Assembly: GCA_963514005.1 (NCBI GenBank)
Contig: OY740782.1
Span: 76,198,001 to 76,262,000 of the forward strand
Source: Raja brachyura
Taxonomy: Eukaryota
DNA length: 64,000 bases
Direction of reading: 5' to 3'
Part shown: in pieces, positions 20,243 through 60,296 of the stretch
How the letters are laid out: each line of letters begins with the position of its first letter
Numbering within the stretch: the stretch's first letter is position 1
Notes under the pieces: generated by a model
The model's input: the letters and a program-made list of their open reading frames with translations, nothing else
Databases searched by the model: none
Told to the model about the DNA's origin: nothing
Translations under genes and position numbers: made by a program

Positions 20243-21897
20243 TAGCAGGGATGACAGGGGAACAACAATGGCAGGTATTTCTCGAAATAATACAGAAGTT
20301 GCAGGATCAGTTCATTCCAAAGAGGAAGAAAGATTCCAAGGGGAGTAAGGGGCGGCCGTGGCTGACAAATGAAGTCAAGGACATTATAAACATAAAAGAG
20401 AAGTATAACATAACAAAGATGAGCGGGAAGCCAGAGGATTGGGAAACTTTTAAAGAACAACAGAAGATAACTAAAGACAATATGGGGAGAAAAGATGAGG
20501 TACGGAGGTAAGCTAGCCAAGAATATAAAAGAGGATAGTAAAAGCTTCTTTAGGTTTGTGAAGAGGAAAAAATTAGTTAAGACCAAAGTTGGACCCTTGA
20601 AAACTGAAACAGGTGAATTTATTATGGGGAACAAGGAAATGGCAGACAAGTTGAACACGTACTTTGGATCCATCTACACTAAGGAAGACACAAACAATCT
20701 CCCTGATGTACTAGTGGCCAGAGGATCATGGGTGATGGAAAAACTGAAGGAAATTCACATTAGGCAGGAAATGGTGTTGGGTAGACTGATGGGACTGAAG
20801 GCTGATAAATCCCCATAGCTTGATGGTCTGCATCCCAGGGTACTTAGGAAAGTGGCTCTAGAAATCGTGGATGCATTGGTGATCATTTTCCAATGTTCTA
20901 TAGATTCAGGATCAGTTCCGGTAGATTGGAGAGTAGCTAATGCTATCCTGCTTTTTAAGAAAGGAGGGATAGAGAAAACAGGGAATTATATATCATTAGC
21001 CTAACATCGGTGGTGGGAAGATGCTAGAGTCAATTCTAAAAGATGAAATAACGGCTCATTTGGATAGCAGTAACAGGATTGGTCCGAGTGGATTTACGAA
21101 GGGGAAATCATGCTTGACTAATCCTCTGGACAAGAAACAAAGAGTAGGGATTAATGGATCCCTTTCAGAATGGCAGGCAGTGACTAGTGGCGTACCGTAA
21201 GGTTCGGTGCTGGGACCAAAGCTGTTTACAATCTACATCAATGATTTAGATGAAGGGATTCAAAGTAACATCAGCAAATTTGCAGATGACACAAAGCTGG
21301 GTGGCTGTCTGAACTGTGAGGTAGATGATATGAGGATGCAGGGTGACTTGGATAGATTGGGTGAGTGGGCAGATGCATGGAAGATGCAGTTTAATATGGA
21401 TAAATGTGAGGTTATCCACTTTGGTGGCAAAAACAGAAAGGGAAATTATTATCTGAAGTTGGGAAAAGGGGAAGTACAAAGAGATTTGGGGGTCCTGGTT
21501 CATCAGTTACTGAAAGTAACCATGCTCTTTACAGCAGGCAGTGAAGAAAGCTAATGGCATGTTGGCCTTTATAACATGAGGAGTGTAGGAGCAAAGAGGT
21601 CCTTCTGCAGTTGTACAGGGCCCTAGTGAGACCCCACCTGGAGTACTGTGTGCTGTTTTGGTCTCCAAATTTGCGGATTTTTGCTATTGAGGGAGTGCAG
21701 GGTAGGTTCATTAGGTTAATTCCCGGGATGGCAGGACTGTCATATTCTGATAGAATGGAGTGGCAGGGCTTGTATACTCGGGAAATTAGAAGGATGAGAG
21801 AGGATCTTATTGAAACATATAAGATTATTAAGGGTTACACAAAAAGCTGGAGAAACTCAGCGGGTGGAGCAGCATCTAAGGAGCGAAGGAGATAGGC

Positions 21898-21925
21898 GAC
21901 GTTTCGGGTCGAGACCCTTCTTCAG
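21898..21925 (-). ncRNA. Minimal type I hammerhead-ribozyme-like core in the PLE 3' end
   Basis: Minus strand CUGAAGA-A-GGGU(CUCG)ACCC-GAAAC-GUC: conserved core boxes, stem II, and palindromic ACGU in place of stem III. Stem I pairing is weak and activity is unproven. Confidence 0.7.
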
Positions 21926-22159
21926 ACTGGTCAGGGATCAGGGAAACGAGAGATATAGACGGTGATGTGGAGAGATAAAGAACAATGAATGAAAGATATG
22001 CAAAAAAGTATCGATAATAAAGGAAACAGGCCATTGTAAGCTGTTTGAAGTGTGAAAATGAGAAGCTAGTGCGACGTGGGTGGGGGAGAGATAGAGAGAG
22101 AAGGAATGCCAGGGCCCGAGGGCTGAGGGGCAGGTGGGAAGGGGAGGAGGCAGCCTGGG

Positions 22160-22702
22160 TTAACAGAATTGAGAAAATTCAATGTTTAAGCCCAGAGGAT
22201 GCAGACTCCCCAAGCGGAATATGAGGTGCTGTTCCTCCAACTTGCGGTGTTGTTCACTCTGGCCGTGGAGCAGGCCCAGGACCGAGAGGTCGGATACGGA
22301 ATGGGAGGGGGAGTTGAAGTGCTGAGCCACCGGGAGGTCGGGTTGGTTATTGCGGACCGAGCGGAGGTGTTCGGCGAAACGATCGCCCAGCCTCCGTTTG
22401 GTCTCACCGATGTAGATCAGCTGGCATCTGGAGCAACGGATGCAGTAGATGAGGTTGGAGGAGGTGCAGGTGAACCTCTGTCGGACTTGGAAGGACTGCT
22501 TGGGTCCCTGAAAGGAGTGGATGGGGGAGGTGAAGGGACAAGTGTAGCATCTCTTGCGATTGCAAGGGAAAGTGCCCGGGGAAGGGGTGGAGCGGGAGGG
22601 AAGGGAAGAATTGACAAGGTAGTTGCGGAGGGAGCGGTCTTTGCGGAAGGCAGACAGGGGGGGAGATGGGAAGATGTGGAGAGTGGAGGGGTCACGTTGA
22701 AG
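22160..22702 (-). CDS. PLE ORF C-terminus: Cys-rich linker + GIY-YIG endonuclease (180 codons, no start codon, absent from ORF track)
   Basis: Manual translation: LQRDPST...PGTFPCNRKRCYTCPF...FTCTSSNLIYCIRCSRCQLIYIGETKRRLGDRFAEHLRSVRNNQPDLPVAQHFN...RKLEEQHLIFRLGSLHPLGLNIEFSQFC*. Confidence 0.92.
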   Translation of the reverse strand, partial: LQRDPSTLHIFPSPPLSAFRKDRSLRNYLVNSSLPSRSTPSPGTFPCNRKRCYTCPFTSPIHSFQGPKQSFQVRQRFTCTSSNLIYCIRCSRCQLIYIGETKRRLGDRFAEHLRSVRNNQPDLPVAQHFNSPSHSVSDLSVLGLLHGQSEQHRKLEEQHLIFRLGSLHPLGLNIEFSQFC

Positions 22703-23779
22703 ATTATTAAGGGATTGGACATGCTAGAGGCAAGAAACATGTTCCTGATGTTCGTGATGTTGGGGGATTCCAGAACCTGGGGCCACAGTTTAAGAATGAG
22801 GGGTAAGCCATTTAGAGTGGAGGTGAGGTAAAACATTTTCACGCAGAGAGTTAGGAATCTGTGGAATTCTCTGCCTCAGAAGGCAGTGGAGGCCAATTCT
22901 CTGGATGCTTTCAAGAGAGAGCTAGAGCTAGATAGAATTCTTAAAGATAGCGGAGTCAGGGAATATGGTGAGAAGGCAGGAACGGGGTACTGAATGTGGA
23001 TGATCAGCCATGACCACAGTGAGTGGAAGTGCAGGCTCGAAGGGCTGAATGGCCTCATCCTGCATCTATTGTCTATTGTCTATTCATCCTATTGTTACGT
23101 GTTTCCTAACTATCTTTACAAGTTAAAACCATTGTAGTACCCCCTGTGGATAGTTATGTATATTTCTACACCTGCACTGCTATAAAGGAAGCCAGTGGTG
23201 TTGTGATGCTCCAAGCGTGGCTTTGCCAAGGTTTCAACCACACCTTCAGGCTTGCATCAAAAGCTCTGGCCACATCAACCAACATTTTCATCGCTTTTCT
23301 TAGCAGGTTACAAATGTTATGAGTTTAAGTAATCCATCCACTAAAACTGCACATCCAAATTCATGACCTTGTAATTTTCAGCATTGAGCTGCATCTGCCA
23401 GTAAACTGCCCACTTGCCAGCTTGTGCTAAATCTCTTTGGTTTGATCCATATCAGCAAACATCAACGAACAGTATTTTACACATGAGCAAAAATGTTTCC
23501 CAGCACTGCTGTAGATATGAGAAACACTGTCAGATGCAGTGGATACCTCCTCCCCATCTTCTTCTTCACCTCACCTGGGACCAATGTAACCCTTGGCTGT
23601 TGAACGATATTTGATTTTCCATAACTTTCTGCTGAAGCTGAACAGGTGGCTCATGGAATCCCATTTGTGTGCTTTATATCCATCCTTCAGCACAGGAAAC
23701 TAGCGGTAATGGATATCTGCTGCCTTGTCGATCATTTCACCTATTACAGGCATCAATCAGCACAAATTGAACCATATAA

Positions 23780-24380
23780 CAATTACAGCACGGAAACAGG
23801 CCATCTCGGCCCTTCAAGTCCATGCCGAACAACTTTTTTCCCTTAGTCCCACCTGCCTGCACTCATACCATAACCCTCCATACCCTTCTCATCCATATGC
23901 CTATCCAATTTATTTTTAAATGATACCAACGAACCTGCCGCCACCACTTCCACTGGAAGCTCATTCCACACCGCTACCACTCTCTGAGTAAAGAAGTTCC
24001 CCCTCATGTTACCCCTAAACCTCTGTCCCTTAATTCTAAAGTCATGTCCTCTTGTTTGAATCTTCCCTATTCTCATAGGGAAAAGCTTGTCCACATCAAC
24101 TCTGTCTATCCCTCTCATTATTTTAAAGACCTCTATCAAGTCCCCCCTTAACCTTCTGCGCTCCAGAGAATAAAGACCTAGCTTATTCAACCTATCTCTG
24201 TAACTTAGCTGTTGAAACCCAGGCAACATTCTAGTAAATCTCCTCTGTACCCTCTCTATTTTGTTGACATCCTTCCTATAATTGGGCGACCAAAATTGTA
24301 CACCATACTCCAGATTTGGTCTCACCAATGCCTTGTACAATTTTAACATTACATCCCAGCTTCTATACTCAATGCTCTGA
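23780..24380 (-). mobile_element. CR1 3' fragment (different subfamily)
   Basis: Minus ORF 23843-24394: LYKALVRPNLEYGVQFWSP...RRLRGDLIEVFKIM...FFTQRVVAVWNELP. Confidence 0.93.
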
Positions 24381-24589
24381 ATATGCTGTATCAAACAATG
24401 CAGTTTGAACTGAGGATTGTTAAAGGGAAGTGCATGATCTCAGCCTTGTCTCTGGTAGAGGATACCAGGGCAAATGGGTAAACCTGAAAAACACCAACTA
24501 TTCAATGAGCAGTTAATCTTGACCAATCAAGCAGACCTTTTGGAAATGTTCTCTCAGTAAAGGTAGAGAGCAAATGTGGGTTTGAAGTA

Positions 24590-24815
24590 AGAACCGATGT
24601 GCTGGAAACACTCAGCAGGCCAGGCAGCATCAATGGAAGGAGATGCAGAGTTAATGATTCAGGTGGAAGGTCCTTCATCAAAACTAGTAAAGGATCTTCC
24701 ACCTGAACATCTGTTCGTGCAGACTGAGCATCAGTTCTGGTGAATGGTCTTTGACCTAAAGCATTCATTCTCTTTCATGGATGCTGCTTAACATGGTGAG
24801 TATCTGCAGGTATTT
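24590..24815. mobile_element. Old inverted pair of PLE-derived hammerhead-type repeats
   Basis: GCTGGAAACACTCAGCAGGCCAGGCAGCATC...CCTTCATCA (minus), then CTGGTGAATGGTCTTTGACCTAAAGC...GATGCTGC (plus). Confidence 0.65.
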
Positions 24816-26824
24816 GATTTTCAATTAATAGAACTTATTAATGCTTGCTCATCCAGTCTTTGAGTATGCAGTAAATGGAAACATTTGATTGCTTCAATGT
24901 GAGTGTCTAACTAATAGGTTTAAAATGAAATTCGACTTCACAAAGCTCATGTGTTTTTATGTACAAATCACAGGGATACATAAATAATATTGTAATATAA
25001 TATTGTAATATAATATAAAGTACTGTAAACATTCTTGAGATTGGTAAAATAGTTCTTATCAGCATTTCTTCCAATTGATCTTACGCTTCTTCAATGACTG
25101 TTGTATAATAGAGCTTCCACCGGGACTAGAAAAATAGTTTGTTACCACATTTGTCACTGTACCACATGAGCATATGTTAAGGAGAACATTGTCACATTGC
25201 AAGAATCAGAGATACAAATATATTATGAGATCTTGCTGGTATAATTATAGCTCGGTAACCTGGCGAAAAGGCCATGGGACCACATTTACATTGAATACAT
25301 TTCTGCGAGAATACCACAAATTTGCACTTTGTTCACTTAAAGGATTCAGATAGGGTGGCCAGCATGCCATTTAGGATTTTCCACCGTTTAATTTTAACCT
25401 GCCTATCTGCTCTCCAAGGAGGTCATTCGTGACCTAAGCTCATATGGTGCGTGAATCACAATGTAAATTGAGTCCATAACTCAATAAAATGTCAAGATTT
25501 TATCGCTGACTCAAGTACAATATGCATTGGTTAAATATTGACAGGAAAATCTATCAACAGCTTCCTTATTCCTAACCATGCTATGTATTCAGCCTATTAT
25601 AAATACATTTATCACAACGTAATTCTACAAACATTAACTTCTTGTCAAAGATGCACCAACATTGCTTCCTCAAGCCCTTGCATGTTCAGCAACTTTATCT
25701 GTCCTTTCTGTTCCTTTCTCAGTCCTGCAAGGTGAGGGAGAAGGCATGATTTTGTGTTGCTGTCTGAAAGCCCATTCCCATCTCCATTTCATAGACCTGG
25801 GCACCTCCCATCAATAATTTAAGGCCTGTTAACAACACCACATTTTTTCAGTTATTCCTTGTTGAACTGTTTCAAACTGTGTGAATCCTCACATGGTTCA
25901 GGGCAACCTACCCTCTTGTCTAATTCCTCTGCAGATAACTCTGGCTTCGCATTTGACATTACCACCAACCTATTTAGTGCTTCAAACTCATGTCCTGTGA
26001 CCAGGATCCCAGGTAATCACTTCCACTACCCACGAGACCCAGTCTCAGATCCAACTTCTCTACTTCTTCCCAGTTGAATTTCTGATCCTTGATTCAACTG
26101 TATTAATGAATTTTCCTTCCACTACAGAGGAGTACCAAAGCACAAAGTTGAGCCCACTGCTGCCAGTGACACAAGTCACTTATCTCTTGTACATTGAGAC
26201 CATTCTTTGACTTGACATTCCTGCTAGAGAACCTGATCCTTGAAAGCACATTTGCTGCCAGCATGCAGCCCTTTACATTAATGTCTGTACAATATTTATT
26301 GCTAATAATATAAACCATTATAATCACAAATGAAAATTCTGGAACAAAATCACATCAAGTTCCATATAACACTCTGGATGTAGCAAATTGAACAATTTAC
26401 TTTATTTTACAATATTATGAAGCAAATGGACATTTAAAATGTTGCAGATTTCCATTGATACACAACAGTAAAAATAATTTTGAATCCTTAATGTTTTTCT
26501 TCGATCCTTTGACCTGCATATTCCAGCTTGATCATGTGAAATCTTATAATTGCATAGTTCCCTGGGTCCTTTCAGCAACCTGTGTGAGAATTTGCCCACT
26601 ATGGCATTTTGGAGGAGTTGTACACAAGAGGAAAATTAGAAGTATTCGATTCAATCAATCACTTTGTTCAGCTAATCCATCAGTGAGTTTGATCAAATGA
26701 CTTGCAAAGTTCATTTCACAGTAAGTCCCAAGGTTTTCAGGTATGTGAGAAAATGGAAGTAATTAGATTTGGATCCTTTTTTCTCAAATATAAGTTTAGA
26801 TCAGTTGAAGAAATGAAATTTTAG

Positions 26825-26910
26825 CTGAAGATAGACACAAAATGCTGGAGTAACTCAGCATCTCTTGATAGAAGCGATAGGTGACGTTTAGGGTGGAGTC
26901 CCTTCTTCAC
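26825..26910 (-). mobile_element. PLE-derived hammerhead-type short repeat
   Basis: GAAGATAGACACAAAATGCTGGAGTAACTCAGC...GTGACGTTTAGGGTGGAGTCCCTTCTTCA. Confidence 0.75.
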
Positions 26911-40611: not shown

Positions 40612-41267
40612 AGGGCCTGTCCCACTTACGCGACCTCATGGTCACGTTGAGCCGCGATGGTCTCGCGAAGGTCGCACGCGATTTTATTCGACCGCACACC
40701 CGTCTGGAGCGTGTGACGTCATTTGAAGAGGACACAAAATGCTGGAGTAACACAGCGGGACTGGCAGCATCTCTGGAGAGAAGGAATGGGTGATGTTTCG
40801 TGTTGAGACCCTTCTTCAGTCTGAAAGAAGGGTTTTGACCCGAAATGTCACCATTGCTTCTCTCCAGAGATGCTGCCGGTGCTGCCGAGTTACTCCAGAA
40901 TTTTGTGTCTATCCTCAATTATCTTGGCCCCACTCTGGGAGTAGAAGTGGGGGCGGATCCGGACTGCAATGGCTGTGAGCCCCAGGCTGAGCTCGGTGAT
41001 CGATTGCCTTCTTCTGCTGCAGTTGGAAGTAAGATGTTGCGTCGCGCCAGGGTCTTGTGCCTGTCGTACTTTGGCCGTCAGTTACGTGACAGGCCGTTGG
41101 CGCACGAAGATTTTGTTTGCTACAAAAATTTCCGAGCGCCGCACGATGTTGCGCACAACTACATACCCCTCCGTGCTTCTCAGTGGGACCGGCTCTGTGC
41201 GGCCATATGATGCCCGTGCGCCTCAATGCGACGATGAGGTTGCGTAATTTGCGTGCCAAGTCACCCT
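40612..41267. mobile_element. Second Harbinger-type MITE nested in the previous one
   Basis: TAA|AGGGCCTGTCCCACTTACG ... CCCT|TAA. CpG-rich; the right TIR is partly deleted. Confidence 0.75.
40724..40917. mobile_element. Palindromic PLE-derived hammerhead-type repeat
   Basis: Two ~95-bp inverted arms, GACACAAAATGCTGGAGTAAC...CTTCAG-T-CTGAA...GTTACTCCAGAATTTTGTGTC. Confidence 0.85.
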
Positions 41268-43205: not shown

Positions 43206-43296
43206 TTTGTAGGTAGCAGTGCTTTTGCTGTTATGGCACAGCATGTTACAGGTGTACCTAGTTCTAGAGCGTGTGTTTTTAAGTTTTGCAACAAGG

Positions 43297-43380
43297 AAAC
43301 TGACTAGTCCATCGTCTTTTCTGTATCCAGTACTCAGTTGAGAGTACTGGATACAGAAAAGATGATGGACTAGTCAGTTT
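43297..43380. repeat. Near-perfect inverted repeat (39-bp arms, 6-nt loop)
   Basis: AAACTGACTAGTCCATCGTCTTTTCTGTATCCAGTACTC-AGTTGA-GAGTACTGGATACAGAAAAGATGATGGACTAGTCAGTTT, with one G:T pair. Confidence 0.97.
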
Positions 43381-44789
43381 GGCTTTGGAGTGAATTGGGT
43401 TTCATGTTGAGTGAATTGATTTGGTTGTAGACTGGGAATCTCAGGAAGAAGTTAAGGTGGTTCATCAGCTCCTCCCTTGGTATAAACAATATAATCAAAC
43501 CTCGAGTTCCAGCCCCCTTCGTCATCTTGGAAATAAAACCCAACATATGTCGATAAATTAAATGATCAAAATTGTCGTTTTTCTGTTGTATGTAGCAGCA
43601 CATTTTGGAGAGCAAATTAGACACAGTGTGAATGATAACACAATTGTGTACAACCCAGACTCAAATGCAGCTGAATTTAAAAGCTGCAGTATCATTACGG
43701 ACTCCCTAAGGTACAAGACTGGCACCAAGCAACAATTTGTAGACAGTGTCATAATTTGCTTTTATCAAGACAGTATCTATGTGTAATTGATTGCACTGTG
43801 AAACTTTAACTAGATATGTTAAGGTAAAATATTACCAGTGGACGCCACACACTTCTGGGCATAAAACAGAACTATGTCATGTACGTATAAATAGACTTTG
43901 GAATGAGTTTAGGTCTTTTGGCAGGTCATATAACAGAAGAACAGTAAAGGAACTAGTAGGGAGCCCAAAGGAACACCAGCGTCAATCACATCACTGTTAG
44001 AGGATAATCCATTAAAAGCAGCTCTTTTAAGTCATCTCCTAAGACAAGATTGAACCCATTTCACTTTATTATTCGATAGGCAACTTTCATGCACTTTATT
44101 GCTAAGTATGTTATGACTGGCTGTGTCAAAAGCCATTTAGATTTTAAAATATTATTCCCTATAAGTTAACTCAGTCAATACTGTTGTAAATTTGGCTAAT
44201 AAATTCAAGCAAAGGTCTGCTCAAGTAATATTTAGCCGAAAAATTGACAGCTACATCCCAAAATACTTTGCATTTTATTGGTTAGATGAAGCATGGAGCC
44301 TGCAGAATATCCAACAGACAGGTTGGACAGAGTAGCATATGATTAATAAAGACTTTGACTTTATGCCTGTAGCTCACATATTCTAAACAAAACATACTGA
44401 TTTTCTTTTAGTGTATAGCAGTTTAAATTAGAAATAAAAATTAATGATAATCTTTATGGATAAATGGCTGTATCATTTGCTAATACCATTGAGTTAAAAT
44501 CTAGGAGCAAAAATAATGAGTTTCTGTCATCGTGAGTGTCAGTTCAGGAGCTACGTATTTGGTTGGAGATCTCCTGGTCTTTGGTTGCCATGTTAGGATA
44601 ACAAATACTGAATGGGGCTGAATTTTAAGCATCTAATCATTGTTGAATGATTGAATAACACAATCACTTAATTATATCTGTATTCTATAACATTGGATCC
44701 AATAGAATTGGATTACAATTGAGCAATACAACCATTGAAAATAATTATATGAATTCATACTTTTATTGAGAATTGGGAAGCAAAGATGA

Positions 44790-45045: not shown

Positions 45046-45571
45046 AACATTCAGGCAGAAAACAGAAATGCTCGAAGAACTCTGCCAGTAGAGCAACATC
45101 TGTGGAAAGAGAAACCAGTTAATATTTCAGGTTGAAGACACATCAGAACTGACAATTAATTTATCAGAACTGATGGCCTTTAAAACTTCAGTTGCATGTG
45201 ATTCTTTGCTGATAAAGATATCTGGACAAATAATTTACCTATATTTATCAATGCTGGTTAATTGAAGCTGTTATTATAATGTTGTCTGGAGTAAAAGAGG
45301 GAATGTTTATAATAAAATAATAATATGCATTCCACATCAAGTGTAGATTAAGACGAAAAAAATGCACAGAACATATCAGCCATTATGCTTTGTTGTAACT
45401 TCTACTTTTGCAAAAACAAAAATGCAAGAATAACTCATTTATCTTGGCATTTAAAATGCTTGAGCCTCTTTCTCCAAGATGTTCTGTGAATAATTATGTA
45501 TTAGAATTCCATTTGGTAGATTTAGAGTTATAGTGTCACTGAATCATACATCAGGAAACAGTCTCTTCAAA

Positions 45572-47160
45572 CTGAAGATAGACACAACATTGCTGGAGTA
45601 ACTCAGTGGGACAAGCAGCATCTGTGGAGAGAATGGACATAACACATTTCGGGTTGGGAACTTTCTTCAGCCTCAGAAATATCAGTCTGAATGAACATCA
45701 GTCCGAAGAAGGGTTCTGACCCTAAACGTCGTCTGCCCATTTGGATAGCAGTAACAGGATCGGTCCGAGTCAGCATGGATTTACGAAGGGGAAATCATGC
45801 TTGACTAATCTTCTGGAATTTTTTGAAGATGTAACGAGGAAAATGGACAAGGGAGAGCCAGTGGATGTAGTGTACCTGGACTTTCAGAAAGCATGTGATA
45901 AGGTCCCACATAGGAGGTTAGTGGGCAACATTAGGGCACATGGTATTGGGGGTAGAGTGCTAACATGGATAGAGAAGTGGTTGGCAGACAGGAAACAAAA
46001 AGTAGGCATTAACGGGTCCCTTTCAGAATGGCAGGCAGTGACTAGTGGGGTACCTCAAGGCTCGGTGCTGGGACAGCAGCTATTTACAATATACATCAAT
46101 GATTTGGATGAAGGGATTCAAAGTAACATTAGCAAATTTGCAGATGACACAAAGCTGGGTGGCAGTGTGAACTGTGAGCAGGATGCTATGAGAATGCAGG
46201 GTGACTTGAACAGGTTGGGGGAGTGGGCAGATGCATGGCAGATGAAGTTTAATGCGGATAAATGTGAGGTTATCCACTTTGGTAGCACAAACAGGAAGGC
46301 AGATTACTATCTAAATGGCGTCATGTTTGGAAAAGGGGAAGTACAATGGGATCTGGGGGTCCTTGTACATCAGTCTATGAAAGTAAGCATGCAGGTACAG
46401 CAGGCAGTGAAGAAAGCGAATGGCATGTTGGCCTTTATAACAAGAGGAATCAAATATAGGAGCAAAGAGGTCCTTCTGCAGTTGTACAGAGCCCTAGTGA
46501 GACCACACCTGGAGTATTGTGTGCAGTTTTGGTCACCTAATTTGAGGAAGGACATTCTTGCTATTGAGGGAGTGCAGCGTAGGTTTACAAGGTTAATTCC
46601 CGGGATGGCGGGACTGTCATATGCTCAGAGAATGGAGCAGCTGGGCTTGTACACTCTGGAGTTTAGAAGGATGAGAGAGATCTCATTGAAACATATAAGG
46701 CTTTTAAGGGCTTGGACACACTAGAGGCAGGGAACATGTTCCCGATGTTGGGGGAGTCCAGAACCAGGGGCCACAGTTTAAGAATAAGAAGTAAGCCATT
46801 TAGAACGGAGACGAAGAAACACTTTTTCTCACAGAGAGTGGTGAGTGTGGAATTCTCTGCCTCAGAGGGCGGTGGAGGCAGGTTCTCTGGATGCTTTCAA
46901 GAGAGAACTAGATAGGGCTCTTAAAAATAGCGAAGTCAGGGGATATGGGGAGAAGGCAGGAACGGGGTACTGATTGGGAATGATCAGCCATGATCACATT
47001 GAAGGATGGCTCGAAGGGCCAAATGGCCTACTCCTGCACCTATTGTCTATTGTATATAGTCTGTTGTCCATTCCCTCCACAGATGCTGCCTGACCTGCTG
47101 AGTTCCTCCCACACTTTGTTTATTGCTCAAGATTCCAGCATCTGCCGTTTCTTGCTCTCC
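45572..47160. mobile_element. Inverted pair of PLE-derived repeats split by a CR1 insertion
   Basis: Minus arm 45572-45670. The plus arm begins CAGTCCGAAGAAGGGTTCTGACCCTAAACGTC (~45700) and resumes at ~47060 with TGTCCATTCCCTCCACAGATGCTGCC. Confidence 0.75.
45738..47056 (+). mobile_element. CR1 LINE, 5'-truncated, with long RT ORF
   Basis: ORF 45741-46724: SQHGFTKGKSCLTNL, YLDFQKA, GVPQGSVLG, KFADD. Frameshift near 46680; CTATTGT tail. Confidence 0.95.
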
Positions 47161-47766: not shown

Positions 47767-50540
47767 TAATATTCAATTCAATTCAATTCAAACTTTAATT
47801 GTCATTGTGCAGTGTACAATACAGAGACAACAAAATGCAGTTGGTATCTCCGAAGGGCGAACTTACGAAAATAAACAAGTAATTGCGCAGTAGTATGAGT
47901 ATATACATCTATACATATACAGTGGTATCCGTGCAATTTGCTGGTGATTGGATAGTCCGGAGGGGGGGGAGGGGAGGGGTGGAGACAGGCAGTCATTCAG
48001 GTGCAGCATTGAGAAGTGTGACAGCCGCAGGGAAGAAGCTGTTCTTGAGCCTGCTGGTACAGCAGCGGAGGGACCTGTAGCTTCTCCCGGATGGGAGGAG
48101 GGTAAACAGTCTATGATTGGGGAGTGAGCTGTCCCTGGCGATGCTGTGCGCCCTGCGCAGGCATCGTTTACTATGGGCAGACTCAATGGAGGGGAGTGAG
48201 GAGCCTGTGATGAGTTGGGCGATCTTCACCACCCTCTGCAGGGCTTTCCGGTCGGCGACAGAGCAGTTACCATACCATACTGTGATGCAGTTGGTAAGGA
48301 TGCTCTCGGTGGTGCAGCGGTAGAAGTTCACCAGAATCTGGAGAGACAGGTGGACCTTCTTAAGTCTCCTCAGGAAGAAGAGACGCTGGTGAGCCTTGAC
48401 CAGTGTAGAGGTATTGTGGGTCCAGGAGAGGTCATCGGAGATGTTGACCCCCCAGGAACCTGAAGCTGGAGGCACGTTCCACCTCCGTCCCGTTGATATG
48501 GATGGGGGTGTGCGTGCAGCCTCTCGATCTCCTGAAGTCCACAATGAGCTCCTTGGTCTTCTTGGAGTTGAGGGCCTGGTTATTGTCGGCACACCATGCT
48601 GTTAGGAGCTGAACCTCCTCCCTGTAGGCCGACTCATCGTTGTCGCTGATGAGGCCAATCACCGTTGTGTCATCTGCATACTTGATGATGGTGTTGGTAC
48701 CACGTACAGGTATGCAGTTGTAGGTGAAGAGGGAGTAGAGGAGGGGGCTCAGCACGCAGCCCTGGGGTACGCCAGTGTTCAGGGTGAGGGTAGAAGAGGA
48801 GTGGTTTTCCAACCTAACAGACTGTGGTCTGTTGGTTGGAAAATCCAGTAACCAATTGCAGAGGGAGGGGTTGATGCCCAGGTCATCAAGTTTGGCAATC
48901 AATTTAGAGGGGATAATGGTGTTGAATGCTGAGCTGTAGTCGATGAACAGCATTCTCACATTAGTGTTTCTGTTGTCGAGGTGGGAGAGGGCGGAGTGGA
49001 GTGCCGTTGAGATGGCATTTTCCGTGCTCCTGTTCTTGCGGTATGCAAACTGGTAGGGGTCCAGAGTGGGAGGTAGGCAGCATTTGAGGTGTGCCATGAC
49101 CAGCCTTTCAACGCACTTGGCGATGATAGGGGTGAGTGCAACTGGGCGGAAGTCGTTGAGGCTCGCCTCAGTGGAGTGTTTTGGCACTGGCACGATGGAG
49201 ATAGTTTTAAGGCATGTGGGGACAACTGCCTGGGCAAGTGACAGGTTGAAGATGTCAGTCCAGACGTCTGTCAGCTGTGCAGCACAGGTCCTGAGGACGC
49301 GCCCGGGGATGCCGTCAGGGCCGGCAGCCTTACGTACATTGATCCTACTCAGTGCCATGTGCACGTCGTAGGGGTTGAGGGTGAGGGGCTGGTGGTCATC
49401 GGGGAGCACAGCCTTGATGGCCAACTCTTGGTTGTCCCTTTCAAAGCGGCCATAAAAGTGATTGAGTTCCTCGAGGAAGGATGCGTCGCTGGAAGTGGGG
49501 GTGGAGTTGGTGACTCTGTAGTCAGTGATGGCCTGGATGCCATGCCACATGCGTCGGGGGTCGGAGTTGCTGTCGAAGTACTTGTATCTGTGTTTGGCGT
49601 TCTTGATTCCCCTCTTCAGATTGGCCCTCGATGAACTATAGGCACGGGCGTCGCCTGACCTGAAAGCCGCGTCTCGTGCTTTCAGCAGTAACCTGACCTC
49701 GCTGTTCATCCATGGCTTCTGATTCGGGTATGTGGTGATTTGTTTGAGAGTGGTGACACTGTTGATGGAGGAGTTGATGAAGTCCAGAACAGAGGAAGTA
49801 TAGGCGTCAATGTCAGTGTGGGAGTCAAGGGTGGCCTGAGCTGCAAACGCATCCCAGTCAGTGTTACCAAAACGCTGCTCGAGTGTGGAGTCCGCTTCAT
49901 CTGACCAAACTTTAACTGTCCTCACTGTGGGTTTAACGCGTCTGATGAGTGGGGAGTACTTAGGGAGCAGGAACAATGATAAGTGATCAGACTGACCAAG
50001 GTGGGGGAGGGGGATGGCTTTGTAGGCTTCAGCCATATTTGTGTAGACTTTGTCCAGTGTCTTGTTCTCTCTAGTGGCGAAGGAGACATGTTGGTGGAAT
50101 TTGGGGAGTACAGTCTTCAGGTTGGAGTGATTGAAGTCACCCGCAACAATGAAGGCTGCGTCTGTATTGAGGGTCAGTTGTTTGCTAATGGCAATATGCA
50201 GTTCTTTCATTGCAAGCTTGGCATTAGCATCAGGAGGGATATAGGCTGCAGTCACAACAGTGGAGGTTCTCGGGCTCGTCCCCGTCTGTGTGCGCCTCCG
50301 GACGCCCGGGCCGACGGTGCGGTCCTCAGGTCTACCGCCCAGCAGCTCTGCAGATTCGCCGCCCCGTAGCTCTGCGGATCCGCCGCCCCGTAGATCCGTG
50401 GTGAATGTGAGTGCAGGAGGGAGCCGGAGTTCGTCCAGAAAGTCGACCGGGGGAACGCTATAGCCGCAGGAACCGTGATTTAAAAGTTCCTGCCGGCTAT
50501 AGTGGATGATAGAGAGACTGCTCCAGAAGATACGTACTTC
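47767..50540 (-). mobile_element. Rex1/Babar-clade LINE, near full-length, with internal deletion
   Basis: 607-aa ORF ([42 protein letters not shown]). Frameshift near 48450; (GAATT)n tail at 47767-47790. The reading frame extends upstream to ~50540. Confidence 0.93.
48432..50540 (-). pseudogene. Rex1/Babar ORF: N-terminal leader fused in frame to partial APE endonuclease + RT
   Basis: Manual translation EVRIFWSSLSIIHYSRQELLNHG...RRRTQTGTSPRTSTVVTAAYIPPDAN is continuous with track ORF 48432-50255. Confidence 0.85.
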
Positions 50541-50559
50541 TCTCTGAATAAAAACATTT

Positions 50560-51780
50560 CCCTGAGGCCCCTCTTAAAACTCTTTCCTCTCATCGTAAGC
50601 CTGTGTTCTTTAGTGTTAGAATCTTCTGTGCTGGGAAAATGACGTTGAGAATTCACTTATCCATAAGGTCACATCGTACGTAATAGGAGCAGAATTAGGC
50701 CATTTGGTCCATCAAGTCTACTCCTCCATTCAATCATGGCTAATCTAGCCCTCCCTCCTAAACTGATTCTGCTGTCTTCTCCCCATAACCCCTGTCATCC
50801 GTACTAATCAAGAATCTATCTATCTCTGCTTTAAACATATCAATTGACTTGGCCTCCACAGCTTTCTGTGGCAACGAATTCCACAAATTCACCACCCTCT
50901 GACAAAAGAAATTCCTTCTCATCTCCTTCCAAAAGGAACATTCTTTAATTCTGAGGCTATCACCTCTAGTTTTAGACTTTCCCACTAGTGGAAACATCCT
51001 CTCCACATCCACTCAATCCAAACCTTTCACTATTTGGTATGTTTCAATGAGGTCCCCCCTCATTCTTCTAAACTCCAGCGAGTACAGGCCCAGTGCCCTC
51101 AAACGCTCATGATAAGTTAACCCACTCATTCCTGGGATGATTCTTGTAAACCTCCTTTGAACCCTTTCCCGGGCCAGCACATCCTTCCTCAGATATGGTG
51201 CCCAAAATTGCTCGTCCTTCTCCAAATGCAGCCTGACAAGCGCCTTATCAGCATTATATCTCTGTTTTTGTATTTTAGCCCTCTTGATATCAATGCTAGC
51301 ACTGCGTTTGATTTTATTTACTACCGATTCGACTTACCGATTAACTTTTTGGGAATCCTGGACCAGTGCTAACAAGTCCCTTTGCACCTCCAATTTCTGG
51401 ATTCTCGCCTCATTTTGAAAATAGTCCACGTTTTTATTCCTACTACCAAATGCATAACTCCACACTTTGCAACACTATATTCTATCTGCCACTTCTCTGC
51501 CCACTCTCCCAACCTGTCCAACTCCTTCTGCAAGGACCCTGCTTTCTCTGCATTTAATGCCCCTCATAACCTTGTACTTCTCAATAAGGTCATTCCACAG
51601 CCTCCTGTAATCCAAAGAAAAACTCTGAGCCTATCCAATCACTCTATAACTCAAACTCACAAGCCCAGGTAACATCCTGGTGAATCTTTTCTGCACCCTT
51701 TCCAATGTAATTACACCCTTCCTATACTGGGTGACCAGAACTGTGCACGATATTCCAAGTGAGGTCTCACAAACAACTAG
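50560..51780 (-). mobile_element. Cluster of CR1 fragments (at least three pieces)
   Basis: Minus ORFs with QFWAPYLRKD, RRMRGDLIETY, FFCQRVVNLWNSLP and LERVQKRFTRMLPGL. Confidence 0.88.
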
Positions 51781-51789
51781 TACTGCTGC

Positions 51790-52112: not shown

Positions 52113-52142
52113 TGGGGGGGGGGGGGGGGGGGGAGGGGGGGG
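52113..52142 (+). repeat. Poly-G run (~30 nt)
   Basis: Read directly. Confidence 0.9.
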
Positions 52143-52296
52143 ATGTTGTCCATTAATGCCGAGTGTCTGCTATAACCGAGTAAGCCATTATCATTGCATG
52201 CAGTAGAAATAAAGAACCACAGATGATGGTTAATACCCAAAATGACACAAGGTACTGGGGGAGCTCAGTGGGTCAGGCAGCATGTCTGGAGAACAT

Positions 52297-52890
52297 CTCT
52301 GGTGAAACCACATATGGAGCATTGTGTACAGGTTTGGTCTCCTAATTTGAGGAAGGACATCCTGTTGATTAAGACAGTGCAGCGTAGGTTCACGAGATTG
52401 ATCCCTGGGATGGCGGGACTGTCATATGAGGAAAGATTGAAAAGGCTAGGCTTGTATTCACTGGAGTTTAGAAGGATGAGGGGGCATCTTATAGAAACAT
52501 ATAAAATTATAAAAGGACTGGACAAGCTGGATGCAGGAAAATTGTTCCAATGTGGGGGCGGGTCCAGAACCAGAGGCCACAGTCTTAGAATAAAGGGGAG
52601 GTCATTTAAGACAGAGGTGAGAAAAAACATTTTCACCCAGAGAGTTGTGAATTTATGGAATTCCCTGCCACAGAGGGCAGTGGAGGCCAAGTCACTCGAT
52701 GGTTTTAAGGGAGAGTTAGATAGAGCTCTAAGGGCTAGTGTAGTCAAGGGATATGGGGAGAAGGCAGGAACGGGATATTGATAGGGGACAATTAGCCATG
52801 ATTACAATGAATGGCGGTGCTGGCTCGAAGGGCCGAAGGGGCGAATGGCCTCCTCCTGCACCTATTTTCTATGTTTCTATGTTTCTATGT
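52297..52890 (+). mobile_element. CR1 3' fragment inserted into a PLE-derived repeat (52203-52296 + 52891-52930)
   Basis: ORF LVKPHMEHCVQVWSP...WNSLP; (TTCTATGT)n tail; TSD AACAT at 52292-52296 and 52891-52895. Confidence 0.93.
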
Positions 52891-53709
52891 AACATGGATA
52901 GGTGACATTAGATCCCTTCTTCAGACTGATATTGGCGCTGATGCCGCTGGTCTGCACCAGTGAGCCCTTCTTCATCATTCCACCCGATTGTTGTTGCGGT
53001 CACATTGTATCCCCTAGCTGACAGTGCTTTCTTCAGGCTACTGCCAATGACAAGACGTGCTCAGTCACCATGAGGCTCCCTCCTCTGTCACCAGCTGCTG
53101 CTTCTTCCTTCGCTTCATCTGCCACCTCCTCCTCCCTACCCTCCTCAGTCACCGACATCTTCCAAGGTGGAGTATATCAGCGTCTCTGGGGGCAGGAGAT
53201 GGCAGTGGAGGAGAGGGAAGAGGCTGAGTGGACAGAGCGACGGAGGACAAAAGTAGGAAACTCCACAGTGACCGAGAGCGAACAATTGGTGGCAGCAGCC
53301 TGAAGCTCCCAGAGGCTTCAATGTGAGCTGTAACAATTGACATGTCAACTGGACCAGGCAATGGGGGAAGAAGGGCTCACTGGTGCACCTTGCCACCTGG
53401 GTGTGGCGTTGGAAGCCGGGGTTGTAAGCAGAGGGGAGGTGGTGCAAGCCGGGGGTGGCATCAACAGGTCCGTCTGCTATAACTGAAATCTATTATAAAG
53501 GGGTCCCTCGTTGGCCTGTAGATCCCAAGCTAGTCCTTGCTCCCTGTCGTAAATAATAGCACGCCACCAGTCTTATGAAATTGCACCTACAGCTAAAGAT
53601 GATGCACATATCTCTGCAGGGCCTCACATTTTCCTCCCCAGCTTCACACAGGGTTCGCAGATAGGAGTCACTGCATGACTTAAGCTCCAGTGCAGCAAAA
53701 TTACAGTGA

Positions 53710-54365
53710 AACATAGAAATATAGAAAACATAGAAAATACGTGCAGGAGCAGGCCATTCGGCCTTTCGAGCCAGCACCGCCATTCAATGTGATCATGGCT
53801 GATCATCCAAAATCAATACCCCGTTCTGGCTTTTCCCCCACATCCCTTGATTCCTTTAGCCCTAACAGCTAAATCTAACTCTTTCTTGAAAACACCCATG
53901 AATTGGCCTCCACAGCCTTCTGTGGCAGAGAATTCCACTGATTCGCAACTCTCTGGGTGCAAATGTTTTTCCTCATCTCAGTTCGAAATGGCCTTCCCCT
54001 TATTCTTAAACTGTGACCCCTGGTTTTGGACTCCCCCAACATTGGAAACATTTTTCCTGCATCTACCCTGTCCAATCCTCTAAGAATTTTATATGTTTCT
54101 ATAAGATCCCCTCGCATTCTAAATTCCAGTGAGTACAAGCCCAGTCCAGCCATTCTTTCATCTTACTTCAGTCCCGCCATCCCGGGAATTAATCTGGTGA
54201 ACCTACGCTGCACTCCCACAATAGCAATAATTTTCATCCTCAAATTAGGAGACCAAAATTGCACTCAATTCTCGAGGTGCGGTCTCACCGGGGCCCTGTA
54301 CAATTGCAGTAGGACCTCCTTGCTCCGAAACTCAAATCCTTTCGCAATGAAGGCCAACATTGGCT
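53710..54365 (-). mobile_element. CR1 3' fragment
   Basis: Tail (AACATAGA)n on the plus strand at 53710; minus ORF GLYSLEFRMRGDLIETYKIL. Confidence 0.92.
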
Positions 54366-54419
54366 TTCTTCACTTCAGAGTTAGAATATCACAGCACTGT
54401 GCGAAGTAGTGGATGATTG

Positions 54420-54590
54420 GGCAGGTGACATTTTGGGTCATCACCCTTGACGAAATTCAGAATCCAAAGAACGCTCTCAACCTAAAATGTCATCTGTCCA
54501 TTCCTCCAAAGATGCTGCCTGACCTGCTGAGTTCCTCTAGTACTTTGTGTTTTGCTCAAAATTGCAACATCTGCAGGGTTTTATTTTGTT
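54420..54590. mobile_element. Degraded inverted PLE-derived hammerhead-type repeat
   Basis: GGTGACATTTTGGGTC (minus arm) and CCTAAAATGTCATCTGTCCATTCC...GATGCTGCCTGACCTGCTGAGTTCC (plus arm). Confidence 0.65.
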
Positions 54591-55780: not shown

Positions 55781-55883
55781 CATCAGTCTGAAGAAGGGTC
55801 TTGACCCAAAACGTCACCTATTCCTTTTCTCCAGAGATACTGCTTGATCTGCTGAATTACTCCAGTTTTTAATGTCTATATTT
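55781..55883 (+). mobile_element. Solo ~100-bp PLE-derived hammerhead-type insertion
   Basis: CAGTCTGAAGAAGGGTCTTGACCCAAAACGTCACC... with CpG-type decay of core G12. Flanked by CATGACAA / CATGATAA. Confidence 0.85.
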
Positions 55884-56173
55884 CATGATAAAAGTTGTTC
55901 TCATAGCCTCAATTTTCTACCTCTTTCTAACAATTTAAAATTTACCAAAGCTATGGAGAAGACTCTGCCACTATATTAAGTTAGAATAATCAGTTTAAGG
56001 ATAAGCCTATCTATAAAATCACATCTCTTAAAACATTCCTGGTAGCAATTTTGTAGGTAATTCTTATTTGGATTCTTTTTGATGCACAGGTTAGTCATTT
56101 TCTGTGTGGCTCTTGGTTTATTTTTTTAAACTAATGCAAATTATTGCAAAAGCTCAATTTGACGTAAATATAG

Positions 56174-56270
56174 GGTTACACAAAAAGCTGGAGAAACTCA
56201 GCGGGTGCAGCAGCATCTAAGGAGCGAAGGAGATAGGCGACGTTTCGGGCCGAGACCCTTCTTCAGACTT
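56174..56270 (-). mobile_element. Solo 97-bp PLE-derived hammerhead-type insertion, young
   Basis: Almost identical to 21833-21928. Perfect TSD CGTAAATATAG at 56163-56173 and 56271-56281. Confidence 0.95.
56239..56266 (-). ncRNA. Minimal hammerhead-ribozyme-like core
   Basis: CUGAAGA-A-GGGU(CUCG)GCCC-GAAAC-GUC; stem II is kept through a U:G wobble. Confidence 0.7.
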
Positions 56271-57864
56271 CGTAAATATAGTTTGCACCTAGAACTCTGG
56301 GACATTTTCTAGAATTGCACCAATTTTTGAATTATGCTGACAAAATCCTTGCAATGGGGAGAAAGTCAACCCTTTGTGGTTTAACTTTCTGGCAGTAGCG
56401 TCTTTAAATATTTACATTTACAATCCCCTGTATATTTGTTGATTTCAATCCCCTCTTCCACTCCACCTGTGCAGCAAAATTAAAAAAAAAACCTGCCTGA
56501 ATTTGTTGACAATGTTTGTAACATAATTGCTCACTTCATGATTATTGCACCAGAACATGATGCTGGTGCTCTCCTAGTTTCTGGAAGTTGTACTTCCTGT
56601 CACACAGCAGAAAAATGATGTCAACCAGGATGCAATACTGAAGGGCTCCCTCTAATTTTGTGCAGGGAACTGGCGATCATTTGTCATAAGCTTATGGAAA
56701 GTGGGCCGAAAGCTATTGCAGGCATTCTTAAACATCCACCAGCAAATATGTCGACAGGTACAGAGACAAAATGACAGATTAGCAACACGCTCAAATACTT
56801 CCTACAGCAGGACAGAGCCTACTGAAATCGTGGTTTAAAACAGCCATTCAACCTGAGATTAAAAATGTTTTACAATATTCAAATACAGTGTATATTGAAA
56901 AACGTGGAACTAATTTCCATAATCTTGCAATTTCTAAAGCATCGCTAGAGTTGTCATGACTATTTCCCTGGCGATTTTGATATGGTATTACAGAAGGGGG
57001 TTGGGCTTCATTTCCACATTCAGGCTGACAGTAAATCTGAAGGTATATTTAATGGCAATATTATACTGAATCACTGGGCTAAAACTTGACATCAGTTCCG
57101 TGACTCACTACTCAAACAAATAATTTTATGGGCAGAGGTAACACTGGGAATTGAACGTTTTATTCCCATGTAACAAGGTTCTTAATCAGTCAGCTACAGA
57201 GAGGTTACAGGAACAACTCATGCTAGCTAATGAGGATTGTTAAAATGCCCTTCACAGCCATATTACTTCTCATTAACATTAAGTAAACATTTAATTAAGC
57301 ATATTTTAGAGCCTGTTTTATTATTACAAATTGAATGATCTGGGCGATTGGAACATGCAGCGTGAGGCACAGTGACCTTTCCAAGCCCTGGAACCAGTTG
57401 CAGCTTAGGCTATGTGGTTGAAAGGCTCCTTTTTCTTCTCGGTTGGACATGATTTGAAAGAAGCAGGTTTGAGCTGGATCCATTTCATCTCCTGGTAAAT
57501 GGCTCCACGCTGTTCATGATTGGTGTTGAATGGTACCAAACTGACAATCTCACTACTGTGTGGGAAATAGAAATGTCGCACCAGTGTTTTATAGTGCGCT
57601 GTTGGGCAGCACAGGGAGATTTATTTTCCACCTAACTCATTTAAGAGTGCTCGACGCTGACATTCCATGGGCAGTGTGGACATTCCTCCACACTAACATT
57701 TTTTATACTCTGCGTATATATTTTCAAAAAAACTGTGAATCATGGTTTGCTCAAAATTCACCCACATCACCCAGGCAATTGTAATTGAACCTCAGTGGAC
57801 TTTATCAAATGATATATTATTTTCTGAACTATTTCCATGCTTGCACAAGAAAAGCATACACTTT

Positions 57865-58175
57865 GGGATAGCACAGTGGCACACCGGCAGAGTTGCTGCC
57901 TTACAGCGCCAGAGACCCAGGTTTAATCCTGGCCTCTAGTGCTCTCAGTATGGAGTTTGTATGTTCTCCCTGTGACCACATGGATTTTCTCCAGGTTCTC
58001 TGGTTTCTTCCCACGCTCCAAAAGACCTATAGGTTTGTAGGTTAATTGACTTTGGTAAGTTGTAAAATTGTCCAGTGTGTGTAGGTTAATGTGTAGGTGA
58101 TTGCTGGCTTGCGCGGACTTGGTGTGCCGAAGGGTTTGATTTGAGCTGTACCTCTAATGTCTAAAGACTAAAGAC
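57865..58175 (+). mobile_element. tRNA-derived SINE, HE1/V-SINE-like, near full-length
   Basis: tRNA-like head (GCACAGTGGC...GGTTTAATCC), central TGGAGTTTGTATGTTCTCCCTGTG domain, CR1-like end (GCCGAAGGG...GCTGTA) and (CTAAAGA)n tail. Confidence 0.82.
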
Positions 58176-58799
58176 TTAGGTCTCTTCAAATCATATTCTG
58201 TGGGATTAATTTTACATGGAATATGAAGTTCTGTTAATCACATGATGAGGTATGCAATGTTGTGATTGTAATTCTGGATAAATAGAAACTAGTAGAGTGC
58301 TAAAAATTAGTTCTACACAGTTGAATTTCTACACCTGTGAGTTCAGATGTTAAGTTATGAGTCTGATTGTGTGACTTAGTTCTAGTGCTACTAAAGATAC
58401 ACTCCTTTGTACAGGTATTGTCATGTGTGTGTATTTTAGGAGATCTTTAAAAATCCCATGGCACCAACTGAAGTACAGGAAGTACGCCCGTTTGCATAAG
58501 GTAATTGAGACTTAAATCAACTCAAGTTTAGGCTTGATGTAGAGAGCAGGCACTTTGAAATTAAAGTAAATATTAATTGCAAAAATATTATTTCAATGCA
58601 CTTTCTTGGAGAGTTTCACATTTTCTGTAAGCAAAGCAAAATGAAAAAGGAAATTTTAGGAAGGAATAAATAAAGCAAAACTATAGTAGTTGTTAGTTAA
58701 TGTCACCATTTAAATGGCGGTAGCTTAATTATAGAAGTGTTGCTTGGGTTTTTATTTTGAGGAGTTAGTGATGTTATTCCCTTTTCTCCACAACCTGCT

Positions 58800-58895
58800 T
58801 CTCTGAAGTCTGAAGTCTCCTGAAACATTACCTATCCATATTCTCCAGAGATGCAGCCTGACCCGCCAATTCATCCCAGCACTTTGTGTTGTTTC
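58800..58895 (+). mobile_element. Degraded PLE-derived short repeat
   Basis: GTCTGAAG...CTGAAACATTACCTATCCATATTCTCCAGAGATGCAGCCTGACCCGC. Confidence 0.7.
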
Positions 58896-60099
58896 TGTTT
58901 CTTCTCCTCTCGGTTATTAGTCTATTGTCAATTTGCAGCTGAAGCTTCTCTTACCTCAGTTTAAAAAAAATCCTGATATATTTTTAAATCATGGTGAAAA
59001 TGGAAGCAAATGTTATCAATGCAACAAACTTGACATTGCATCTTCTGGGTTAGGAACAAGAGATTGATTGGTTGGTTATATCAGAAACAGGCAAATGGAA
59101 GTTGCAGAGCATGGTAGGAGATTTTAGTGAGCAGCACCTGGTTATCAGGAGCCCTCAGTGGCAACAGGTGTACAGGAGCTGATGACAATGGTACAAGTGT
59201 CAAGTAAGAACTCACCACACTATGCAATGCACGAAGGGGAATAATTGAACTATTGTTGATTGGATCACACCTCTGCTGCGCCTGGTCCTATACCTCCTGC
59301 ATAGCCGACCCCACCGCACCCACACTTCTGCCCCCAACCCTGACCCCACATCACATCAGTTCCCCACCTCTGACTCCACCATCTAAAAATATGTCTTACT
59401 CCCTTGAACCTCTCAACTAACCATATGCCAGTTAACTCCAGCTGTTCCACCATTCATATTTGCCACATTCCAAAAATGACTAAACCCTTAGTTCTATGAC
59501 CCAACGCCCTCCCCGAAGCTTCTACCCACCTGATTCCAGTATCCTCAACCTACAACCCCTTGCCCTTTCTCTACCTCTCCCTATCTGCTCCACAACCAGC
59601 TTCTCTGAAGTCTCAGGAAGGGTCCCAACTGCTTAATCCTCACCGATGGTTCCTTTGTGACTTTCAGCCCACACACAGTAGATGGCCTCACGAATGATCA
59701 AGGGTTTGGATATGGGTGACTTTAATAAAACTGTTGTGAAACCTTGCAAAACATTTTTAAAGTTAATTTCCAGTCATGAAAAAATCCTTAGCGCTGTCAG
59801 CTAATGTTGTACTGAAGCTTATTGAACTGCAAGATATTGGGTTTGATCCTTGGACTGTACTGATTCAAGAACCTTAGTTGATTATGGAGTCATGAGCCAA
59901 GTTGGCAGAACTGAGAGAGAAGATTTTTCAAAGGCACCTGGGTGTAAGTGGATGGTTGGATGCAAGATATCTGACAGTGGCTGTGATGCTTTCTCTTATC
60001 AAGTAGCCCTTGATGAAATGTTGAGATGATGAGATGCGATGACACATGAAGAGATGATGATATATCTTCGTTAGACCACATACTGACATTACCAGGAGT

Positions 60100-60296
60100 A
60101 AGACGCAAAAGTGTGGAGTAACTCAGCGGGTTAGACAGCATATCTGGAAAAAAGGAATAGATGACGTTTTTGGTCAAGACCCTTCTTCATTATCATATTT
60201 AATTTCTCCAGAGATGCTGTCTGAACCGCTGAGTTACTCCAGCTTTTTTGTGTCTATCTTCGGTTTAAACCAGCATGTGCAGTTACTGCCTACACA
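60100..60296. mobile_element. Palindromic PLE-derived repeat with partial central deletion
   Basis: GGAGTAACTCAGCGGGTTAGACAGCAT...CCCTTCTTCA, then the inverted arm ATGCTGTCTGAACCGCTGAGTTACTCC. Confidence 0.8.

Follow-up and report, generated by a model that had tools for sequence, protein, structure and literature searches.

What gives rise to the short hammerhead-bearing repeats scattered through a 64,000-nucleotide stretch of the genome of the skate Raja brachyura (GenBank assembly GCA_963514005.1, contig OY740782.1, positions 76,198,001 to 76,262,000 of the forward strand; hereafter the window)? An earlier note, made from the letters alone, had described one Penelope-like element (PLE) at 21832..22702 on the minus strand as the parent of short derivatives marked by a ribozyme motif, and had taken these for a family sized like a short interspersed element (SINE) that could load host pre-mRNAs with self-cleaving or trans-dimerising motifs. 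The reading preferred here, with a probability of roughly 0.7, is that a Neptune-type PLE inserted the repeats through several successive subfamilies and that the short copies are likely run-off cDNAs. That they are PLE debris and not a SINE is held with great confidence. What stands of the earlier account is a PLE with a minimal type I hammerhead motif at one end, present in very high copy number and with copies made by the PLE protein; the SINE-like family does not stand.

The repeat unit and its source element

A profile for the unit of about 93 nt, built from the window and iterated, with the reversed window as control, recovered 22 copies in the window and none in the reversed sequence. 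Recurrence at 17 named sites had been claimed and was confirmed at 16; around 59600 only a degenerate core-like stretch is present. There (59540-59630) a pyrimidine-rich stretch is followed by the degenerate motif without the 3′ unit, perhaps an old remnant of a pseudo-long terminal repeat (pLTR). The noted density of about one locus per 4 kb was borne out by 500 kb of unselected blocks from 13 contigs, in which 163 unit matches were found, one per 3.1 kb, with none in reversed controls, and the extrapolated genome total is about 0.9 million matches with the arms of pairs counted apart.

Few of the copies can be called ribozyme-motif copies, as they had been. Both catalytic boxes are kept in 3 of the 22 in the window, and the whole minimal core, including stem II and the ACGU palindrome, in only 2 (21832 and 56172). 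Intact cores make up 14 of the 163 matches in the unselected blocks. An exact descriptor found 86,541 of them genome-wide, one per 31 kb, and a 28-mer from the young 3′ end has 42,751 exact genome matches. In the window a loose version of the descriptor gave three matches against 0.98 expected, and 7 of 100 shuffles reached three. The Rfam scan proposed earlier matched no hammerhead family in the window at E up to 1. Five weak Rfam matches, all to microRNA or plastid hairpin models and far below gathering scores, were rejected; two of the five fall on head-to-head pairs of the PLE unit.

The supposed parent at 21832..22702 (−) is itself an 871-bp, 5′-truncated young fragment lying within a fragment of a long interspersed element (LINE). 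It lacks a reverse transcriptase (RT) and consists of the end of an open reading frame (ORF), with zinc-knuckle linker and GIY-YIG, a 3′ non-coding part, the hammerhead unit and a short tail. It is flanked by a 14-bp target-site duplication (TSD) at 21821..21834 and 22700..22713, the first copy including short overlaps with the element ends. The GIY-YIG endonuclease coding part (22160..22702, −) shows a CX4CxxC linker, LIY-CxxC-YIG and H..H, and its Pfam match (E 1.6e-4, 22.4 bits) is just under the 22.6 cut-off. Both the coding assignment and the terminal hammerhead motif of the earlier note were confirmed. The intact minimal core occupies 21898..21925 (−), with the predicted cut between 21898 and 21897 and a helix I of only 2 bp. 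It is overlapped by an initiator (Inr)-like heptamer at 21924..21930 (−), whose A at 21928 is the putative RNA start and lies inside the stop hotspot of short copies. The subfamily of this fragment is shared by only 1 of the 21 other window copies, which removes the single parent. That copy (56172..56269, −) is young, short and 98% identical, has an intact core, begins at the putative RNA start and carries an 11-bp TSD at 56163-56173 and 56271-56281. The remaining 20 copies are 60-81% identical to it and represent older subfamilies or old unclustered copies.

Among close relatives of the 21832 fragment (96-98% identity), 27 of 29 extend upstream with common element sequence, and walking upstream led to a 4.04-kb unit that also occurs as tandem repeats of 4043- and 4051-bp period. 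A single 774-aa frame holds both RT and GIY-YIG (RVT_1 E 3.9e-4, GIY-YIG E 9e-4, both below curated Pfam cut-offs), and DKG and YIDD motifs are present in relatives. The cysteines within GIY-YIG, LIYCIRCSRCQLIYIG, are followed by two histidines, the CCHH arrangement as defined in the available part of Craig et al. 2021 (PMC8557442), and the linker CNRKRCYTC is a CX4CxxC that fits the Neptune CX2-5CxxC linker given there. Since that linker is described as absent from Penelope/Poseidon (PMC8557442), these two are excluded by the same definitions, and a Poseidon clade label was dropped once the motif had been compared with them. Also present are a pLTR or partial tandems, an inverted 5′ copy, an optional tail of 30-40 bp and a TSD, the structural features of endonuclease-containing (EN+) PLEs. 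In the accessible text on Neptune and Nematis (PMC8557442; Arkhipova et al. 2013, PMC3846280) such elements likewise combine an RT with a GIY-YIG at the C-terminal end and carry the DKG motif, the CX2-5CxxC linker and CCHH. They likewise show 5′ truncation, partial tandems, an adjacent inverted copy, TSDs, palindromes at inverted junctions and a tail of 30-40 bp that is often at one end only. Judged by its motifs the element is an autonomous Neptune-type EN+ Penelope-like retrotransposon, the Neptune label coming from the linker.

The ORF begins with an ATG 163 nt after core base C3, and what had been called the 3′ unit runs straight on into this ORF; it therefore doubles as the 5′ untranslated region (UTR) of the 4.04-kb element. 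Copies that code for the endonuclease also exist within older subfamilies (4 of 56 and 1 of 14); two small clusters had none (0 of 5 and 0 of 4). The ATG lies in splice-donor-like sequence (AG/GTATG). At G000:C2:3634001-3650000 a tandem PLE array has four cores spaced 4043, 4051 and 1966 bp, with two units sharing an identical frame break between 346-aa and 774-aa pieces.

Ends and pairing of the young copies

The ends of young copies were analysed in the first 100 of the 42,751 28-mer matches, all on contig C1, of which 94 remained after six local duplicates had been dropped. Two fixed 3′ ends about 38 nt apart were found, giving 62 short, 35 long and 3 intermediate tails (n = 100), and copy lengths from the common 3′ end range from 41 nt to more than 2 kb. 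On the other side, 44 of the 79 copies reaching the front edge of the core end within the 8 nt from −6 to +1 of C3 (7.0% per nt), compared with 10 of 35 over the 200 nt that follow (0.14% per nt), and only 1 of 89 ends within 3 nt of the predicted cut site. For unpaired copies the corresponding counts are 23 of 53 at the front edge and 0 of 59 at the cut site, and a TSD was seen in 31 of 58 against 1 of 58 in the control. Genome-wide, a single edge position accounts for 8,118 ends and the exact cut site for 272. An origin of the copies by hammerhead cleavage was rejected as the main route on the count of 1 in 89; cleavage products are at most a small minority of ends, and rare cleavage may occur. 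The class without any upstream match, in which indel-shifted copies are mixed, was left out of the analysis of end positions. Past the first two edge bases, 91 short and 67 long young copies did not differ at any position, the long class being enriched by the searches used.

The base preceding the start A is G in 3,865 cases genome-wide and A or T in 4,253, that is 48% G against 27% expected. In all eight unpaired G copies resolved by their TSD the G lies outside the duplication, being the sole extra base in three, and 2 of 5 resolved A/T loci adjoin the TSD directly. Loose contig ends at the same front edge were found in four runs under three organism codes; these are assembled contigs, from which the start of an RNA cannot be read. 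Ends at −32, −32 and −34 from the core were seen in three copies (one at G000:C1:2934694), a possible minor upstream start or stop site. On G000:C1, between about 5.1 and 7.3 Mb, copies with A before the start base are denser than elsewhere on C1, possibly reflecting a locally amplified segment. At G000:C2:55272483-55272628 three same-strand matches 61 bp apart, each from the predicted cut site, form a tiny head-to-tail repeat that may reflect cleavage or stutter.

Most close pairs of the C1 sample have a head-to-head arrangement, and no head-to-tail array of the unit occurs among the 22 window matches. Twenty-four pair events, counted by hand, comprise 20 short+long, 1 intermediate+long, 1 long+long, no short+short and 2 unclassifiable combinations, so that short+long makes up 20 of the 22 classifiable pairs where 41% would be expected (p 1.6e-6). 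Of 16 pairs, 15 are enclosed as a whole by one outer TSD (2 of 16 in the control), and each pair is therefore one insertion event.

These ends and pairs could be produced as follows. Priming by the PLE enzyme would take place on its own RNA within the first 95-135 nt, at +95 or +133, and the copies of about 95 nt would be cDNA extended back as far as the predicted start of the RNA, which lies 3 nt upstream of the hammerhead core. The stop would then be the 5′ end of an uncut, probably capped RNA, beginning at the Inr-like A, and run-off from the capped end would leave the extra G. The association of an extra G with the cap comes from work on L1, and the literature search found no paper for it. 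Both nicked DNA strands would be primed, one from each start site, and the two cDNA ends would anneal into head-to-head pairs, joined through a CAG-T-CTG near-palindrome or other microhomology. For longer copies, the priming would be at the unit's downstream copy within transcripts that are tandem or result from read-through.

The closest biochemical precedent is PAc, a Poseidon element of the green anole, which in the available part of its description (Frangieh et al. 2024, PMC11167929) primes in vitro at two internal sites near the ORF start that match the tail, cuts and extends both DNA strands, uses uncut RNA as main template and depends on RNA lying downstream of these sites. On the model of PAc the short copies would be dead ends, because the part of the RNA required by the protein would lie downstream of the priming sites and hence be left uncopied. 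Both have a hammerhead near the ORF start (PMC11167929). The skate element differs in that its hammerhead lies 163 nt before the ATG, its linker points to Neptune and the evidence on it is genomic only. In the accessible parts of PMC3846280 head-to-head junctions are explained as self-priming on an antisense template. Neither that text nor the corresponding parts of PMC8557442 describe a fixed 5′ stop at the hammerhead edge or a short+long count.

Several observations count against this scheme. The 100 copies sampled come from one 3.9-Mb stretch and were chosen by an exact 3′ 28-mer, and because junctions of pairs overlap by 7 nt, the ends there are necessarily at −4. Head-to-head junctions inflate the G excess (17 of 40 G loci, 2 of 20 A/T loci), because the G can there derive from the partner arm, and the excess is not significant in a small local sample (6/12, 5/11, 2/8). 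Near-full-length copies give a mixed picture: 20 were examined and 16 reach the ATG region, of which 4 end at −4 to +10, 5 at +21 to +88 and 3 at −32, −32 and −304, while in 4 of the 16 the sequence goes on into a tandem copy upstream. At the exact cut site there are more ends than at two control positions (104 and 185), a comparison confounded by small deletions and CpG decay. Finally, only assembled contigs were examined, with run type guessed and depth unused, and the RNA 5′ end is itself deduced.

The hammerhead motif and competing explanations

The core agrees with the published minimal hammerhead ribozyme (min-HHR) of type I in its CUGANGA and GAAA boxes, UH site, bulge, stem II and palindromic helix III. 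As in the min-HHRs that metazoan PLE pLTRs carry (Cervera and De la Pena 2014, PMC4209133, seen in part), loop 3 is missing, 15.2-16.2 is palindromic, a bulged base precedes stem II and G10.1-C11.1 is present. Among 121 young copies that keep both boxes, helix I is 2 bp long in 91 and at least 4 bp in 7, falling short of the 4-5 bp of the min-HHR definition, and an RNA start at −3 would leave 3 nt for it. In the available part of the same paper helix I has 4-5 bp in Schistosoma mansoni motifs and, as in the skate unit, 2 bp in Drosophila virilis (PMC4209133). At most about 9,000 motifs are reported there, compared with the 86,541 intact skate cores, and no shark or skate term occurs in the two supplement files searched (PMC4209133). 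The palindromic stem III of PLE hammerheads, here ACGU, is thought to permit dimeric folding, and trans-dimerising motifs had been proposed on this ground. The predicted dimer fold (−7.3 kcal/mol) lies 21 kcal/mol above the best fold (−28.1 kcal/mol), which speaks against that proposal, and head-to-head pairs cannot supply a dimer because any single transcript of a pair has one arm in sense and the other in antisense orientation. The z-scores of the folds are ordinary (−0.54 to 0.92). In the predicted best folds of 56172-56272 and 40727-40826, from two subfamilies, the first hammerhead box pairs with the pyrimidine run past the cut site, which would keep the core inactive, at z-scores that are not significant.

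Once inserted, the core decays neutrally like the rest of the unit, at 0.0229 against 0.0228 for the tail, 0.0593 against 0.0588 and 0.065 against 0.050 in three subfamilies, and no compensatory pair change was found among the listed stem II pair types. At the level of copies the equal decay goes part of the way towards the refutation set out in the earlier note; between subfamily masters conservation does appear, in the first 28 nt, loop included (1 of 28 columns vary, compared with 16 of 58, p 0.009). The constraint reflects selection acting on the element, whether for a ribozyme, a promoter or both. Master elements keep the hammerhead motif, possibly also for use as an internal promoter. 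The Inr consensus is YYANWYY. For the Penelope of D. virilis, the available part of Schostak et al. 2008 (PMC2377424) gives a TATA-less internal promoter with an Inr and a downstream element RGACGTGY. The second hammerhead box of the skate unit, AAACGTC, at about +25 to +32 from the putative start, partly matches that downstream element (PMC2377424), and by this analogy the first nucleotides of the skate element possibly serve as promoter.

An independent SINE-like or retrozyme-like family, spreading from short copies by means of the PLE protein and loading pre-mRNAs with self-cleaving or dimerising ribozymes, would account for the fixed size, the TSDs, the very high copy number with its many intact cores and the constrained first 28 nt, and an Inr-like start would permit transcription of short copies. 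Retrozymes do derive from PLE pLTRs in the accessible part of a recent account (10.64898/2026.07.22.740005), and its non-LTR retrozymes are likewise small, PLE-related and non-coding with a type I hammerhead. These are head-to-tail arrays with a hammerhead per unit, whereas the skate copies are single or head-to-head and form no lineage of their own. There are no variants specific to short copies, lengths are continuous, and older subfamilies have long copies of their own with endonuclease upstream. No Rfam match in the window points to the Pol III head (tRNA, 7SL or 5S) that SINEs combine with a simple-repeat tail, the unit being a PLE 5′ UTR, and the window lacks the arrays expected of retrozymes. 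Neutral core decay, the absence of compensatory changes among the listed stem II types, the 2-bp helix I and the unfavourable dimer fold tell against it as well. The load on host pre-mRNAs is unsupported, with intact cores at one per 31 kb and not one per 4 kb. The family so conceived is largely refuted at the level of sequence and retains a faint likelihood.

Two other explanations keep the PLE and change the cause of the stop. A barrier to the copying enzyme at the front edge, such as a bound protein, an RNA fold or a template-switch hotspot, would fit the 35 of 79 copies that run through the edge, the lack of a sharp pile-up of near-full-length copies there and the predicted pairing of the 5′ part with the tail region. 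It is judged unlikely, since RT would be expected to pause 3′ of a hairpin and the stops lie on its 5′ side, the fold z-scores do not stand out, the lone extra G adjoining the TSD in 3 of 8 resolved copies fits an RNA end, and run-through is accounted for by tandem read-through transcripts. Alternatively the stop could be a splice acceptor, with copies made from spliced RNA whose first exon is very short. Directly before the core there are indeed a pyrimidine tract and CAG, and the intron of D. virilis Penelope ends at helix I according to the available part of PMC4209133. The bases upstream of the stop are nevertheless heterogeneous, with no common exon, the TSD lies one base from the start in three copies, and no GT..AG joint ending at the stop was found among the joints listed (258 further joints are unlisted), leaving splicing a very improbable cause.

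Other features of the window and implications

Four further sites in the window are head-to-head pairs. The older pair at 40732..40908 has damaged cores and is joined by the CAG-T-CTG near-palindrome. Another older one (60104..60248) has a degenerate outer TSD at 60086-60104 and 60294-60312, about 45 nt beyond the plus arm. The pair at 24599..24816 is old with decayed cores, and in that at 45588..45742, also old, the 3′ side of the plus arm is cut off by a LINE fragment. An old copy at 54463-54550, within 54420..54550 (+), has a probable short inverted arm upstream, recognised by eye. Older-subfamily copies are found at 26835..26912 (−), with both boxes mutated and an internal deletion, and at 55785..55874 (+), with the G12 position mutated. 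Old copies with decayed cores lie at 11944..12028 (+), where long-tail-like sequence follows, and at 45066..45148 (−). Others have lost the second box (12135..12221, −) or the first box (16089..16177, +), and one has a deletion that passes through stem II (58807..58889, +). Old partial copies are represented by a 3′ part at 765..793 (−) and by coreless pieces at 10332..10378 (−), 52245..52300 (−) and 47060..47119 (+), the last absent from the earlier list.

Broken LINE fragments of at least two kinds, recognised by RT matches, lie at 9301-10230, 13125-14093, 19673-20243, 45726-47064, 48432-50573, 52227-52872 and 53730-54409, and several sampled PLE copies appear to be inserted into the same LINE family as the 21832 fragment. 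At 43295-43382 a near-perfect inverted repeat of about 88 nt, unrelated to the PLE and possibly a small miniature inverted-repeat transposable element, gave a weak mir-144 model match on both strands, far below threshold. A minisatellite with 37-bp units occupies 36814-37099. A crude splice-site scan of the window yielded nine unconvincing candidates and identified no host gene, and tblastn against phages gave no match.

Some of this is already in print. The portions of the literature available describe scattered min-HHRs attributed to truncated PLEs, pairs on opposite strands, 5′ copies in inverted orientation and the one-sided tail, including thousands of single min-HHR motifs and opposite-strand pairs 100-700 bp apart in PMC4209133. 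The literature searched, which misses most subscription papers, yielded neither the fixed stop with its extra G nor the short+long rule as counted. Taken together, the first 32 or so nucleotides of the PLE RNA may be doubly read, as an internal RNA polymerase II promoter and as a vestigial hammerhead. A dimeric enzyme would prime two strands at two 5′ UTR sites, strong-stop-like cDNAs would end at the cap, and failed jumps would be frozen as hundreds of thousands of short or head-to-head insertions; the chances of this fuller account are put as about even.

For work on ribozymes the result is a caution, in that hammerhead descriptor counts in such genomes mostly tally inert transposon debris. 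For the replication cycle of the PLEs, the skate genome offers tens of thousands of young copies whose ends can be counted: one 5′ stop at a fixed place, two 3′ ends, pairs that strictly join short with long, and few ends at the cut site. What these ends predict is a start site of the RNA and a priming reaction on two strands. If the account is true, they are a genome-scale record of that cycle, which would explain the one-sided tail and the inverted pLTR.

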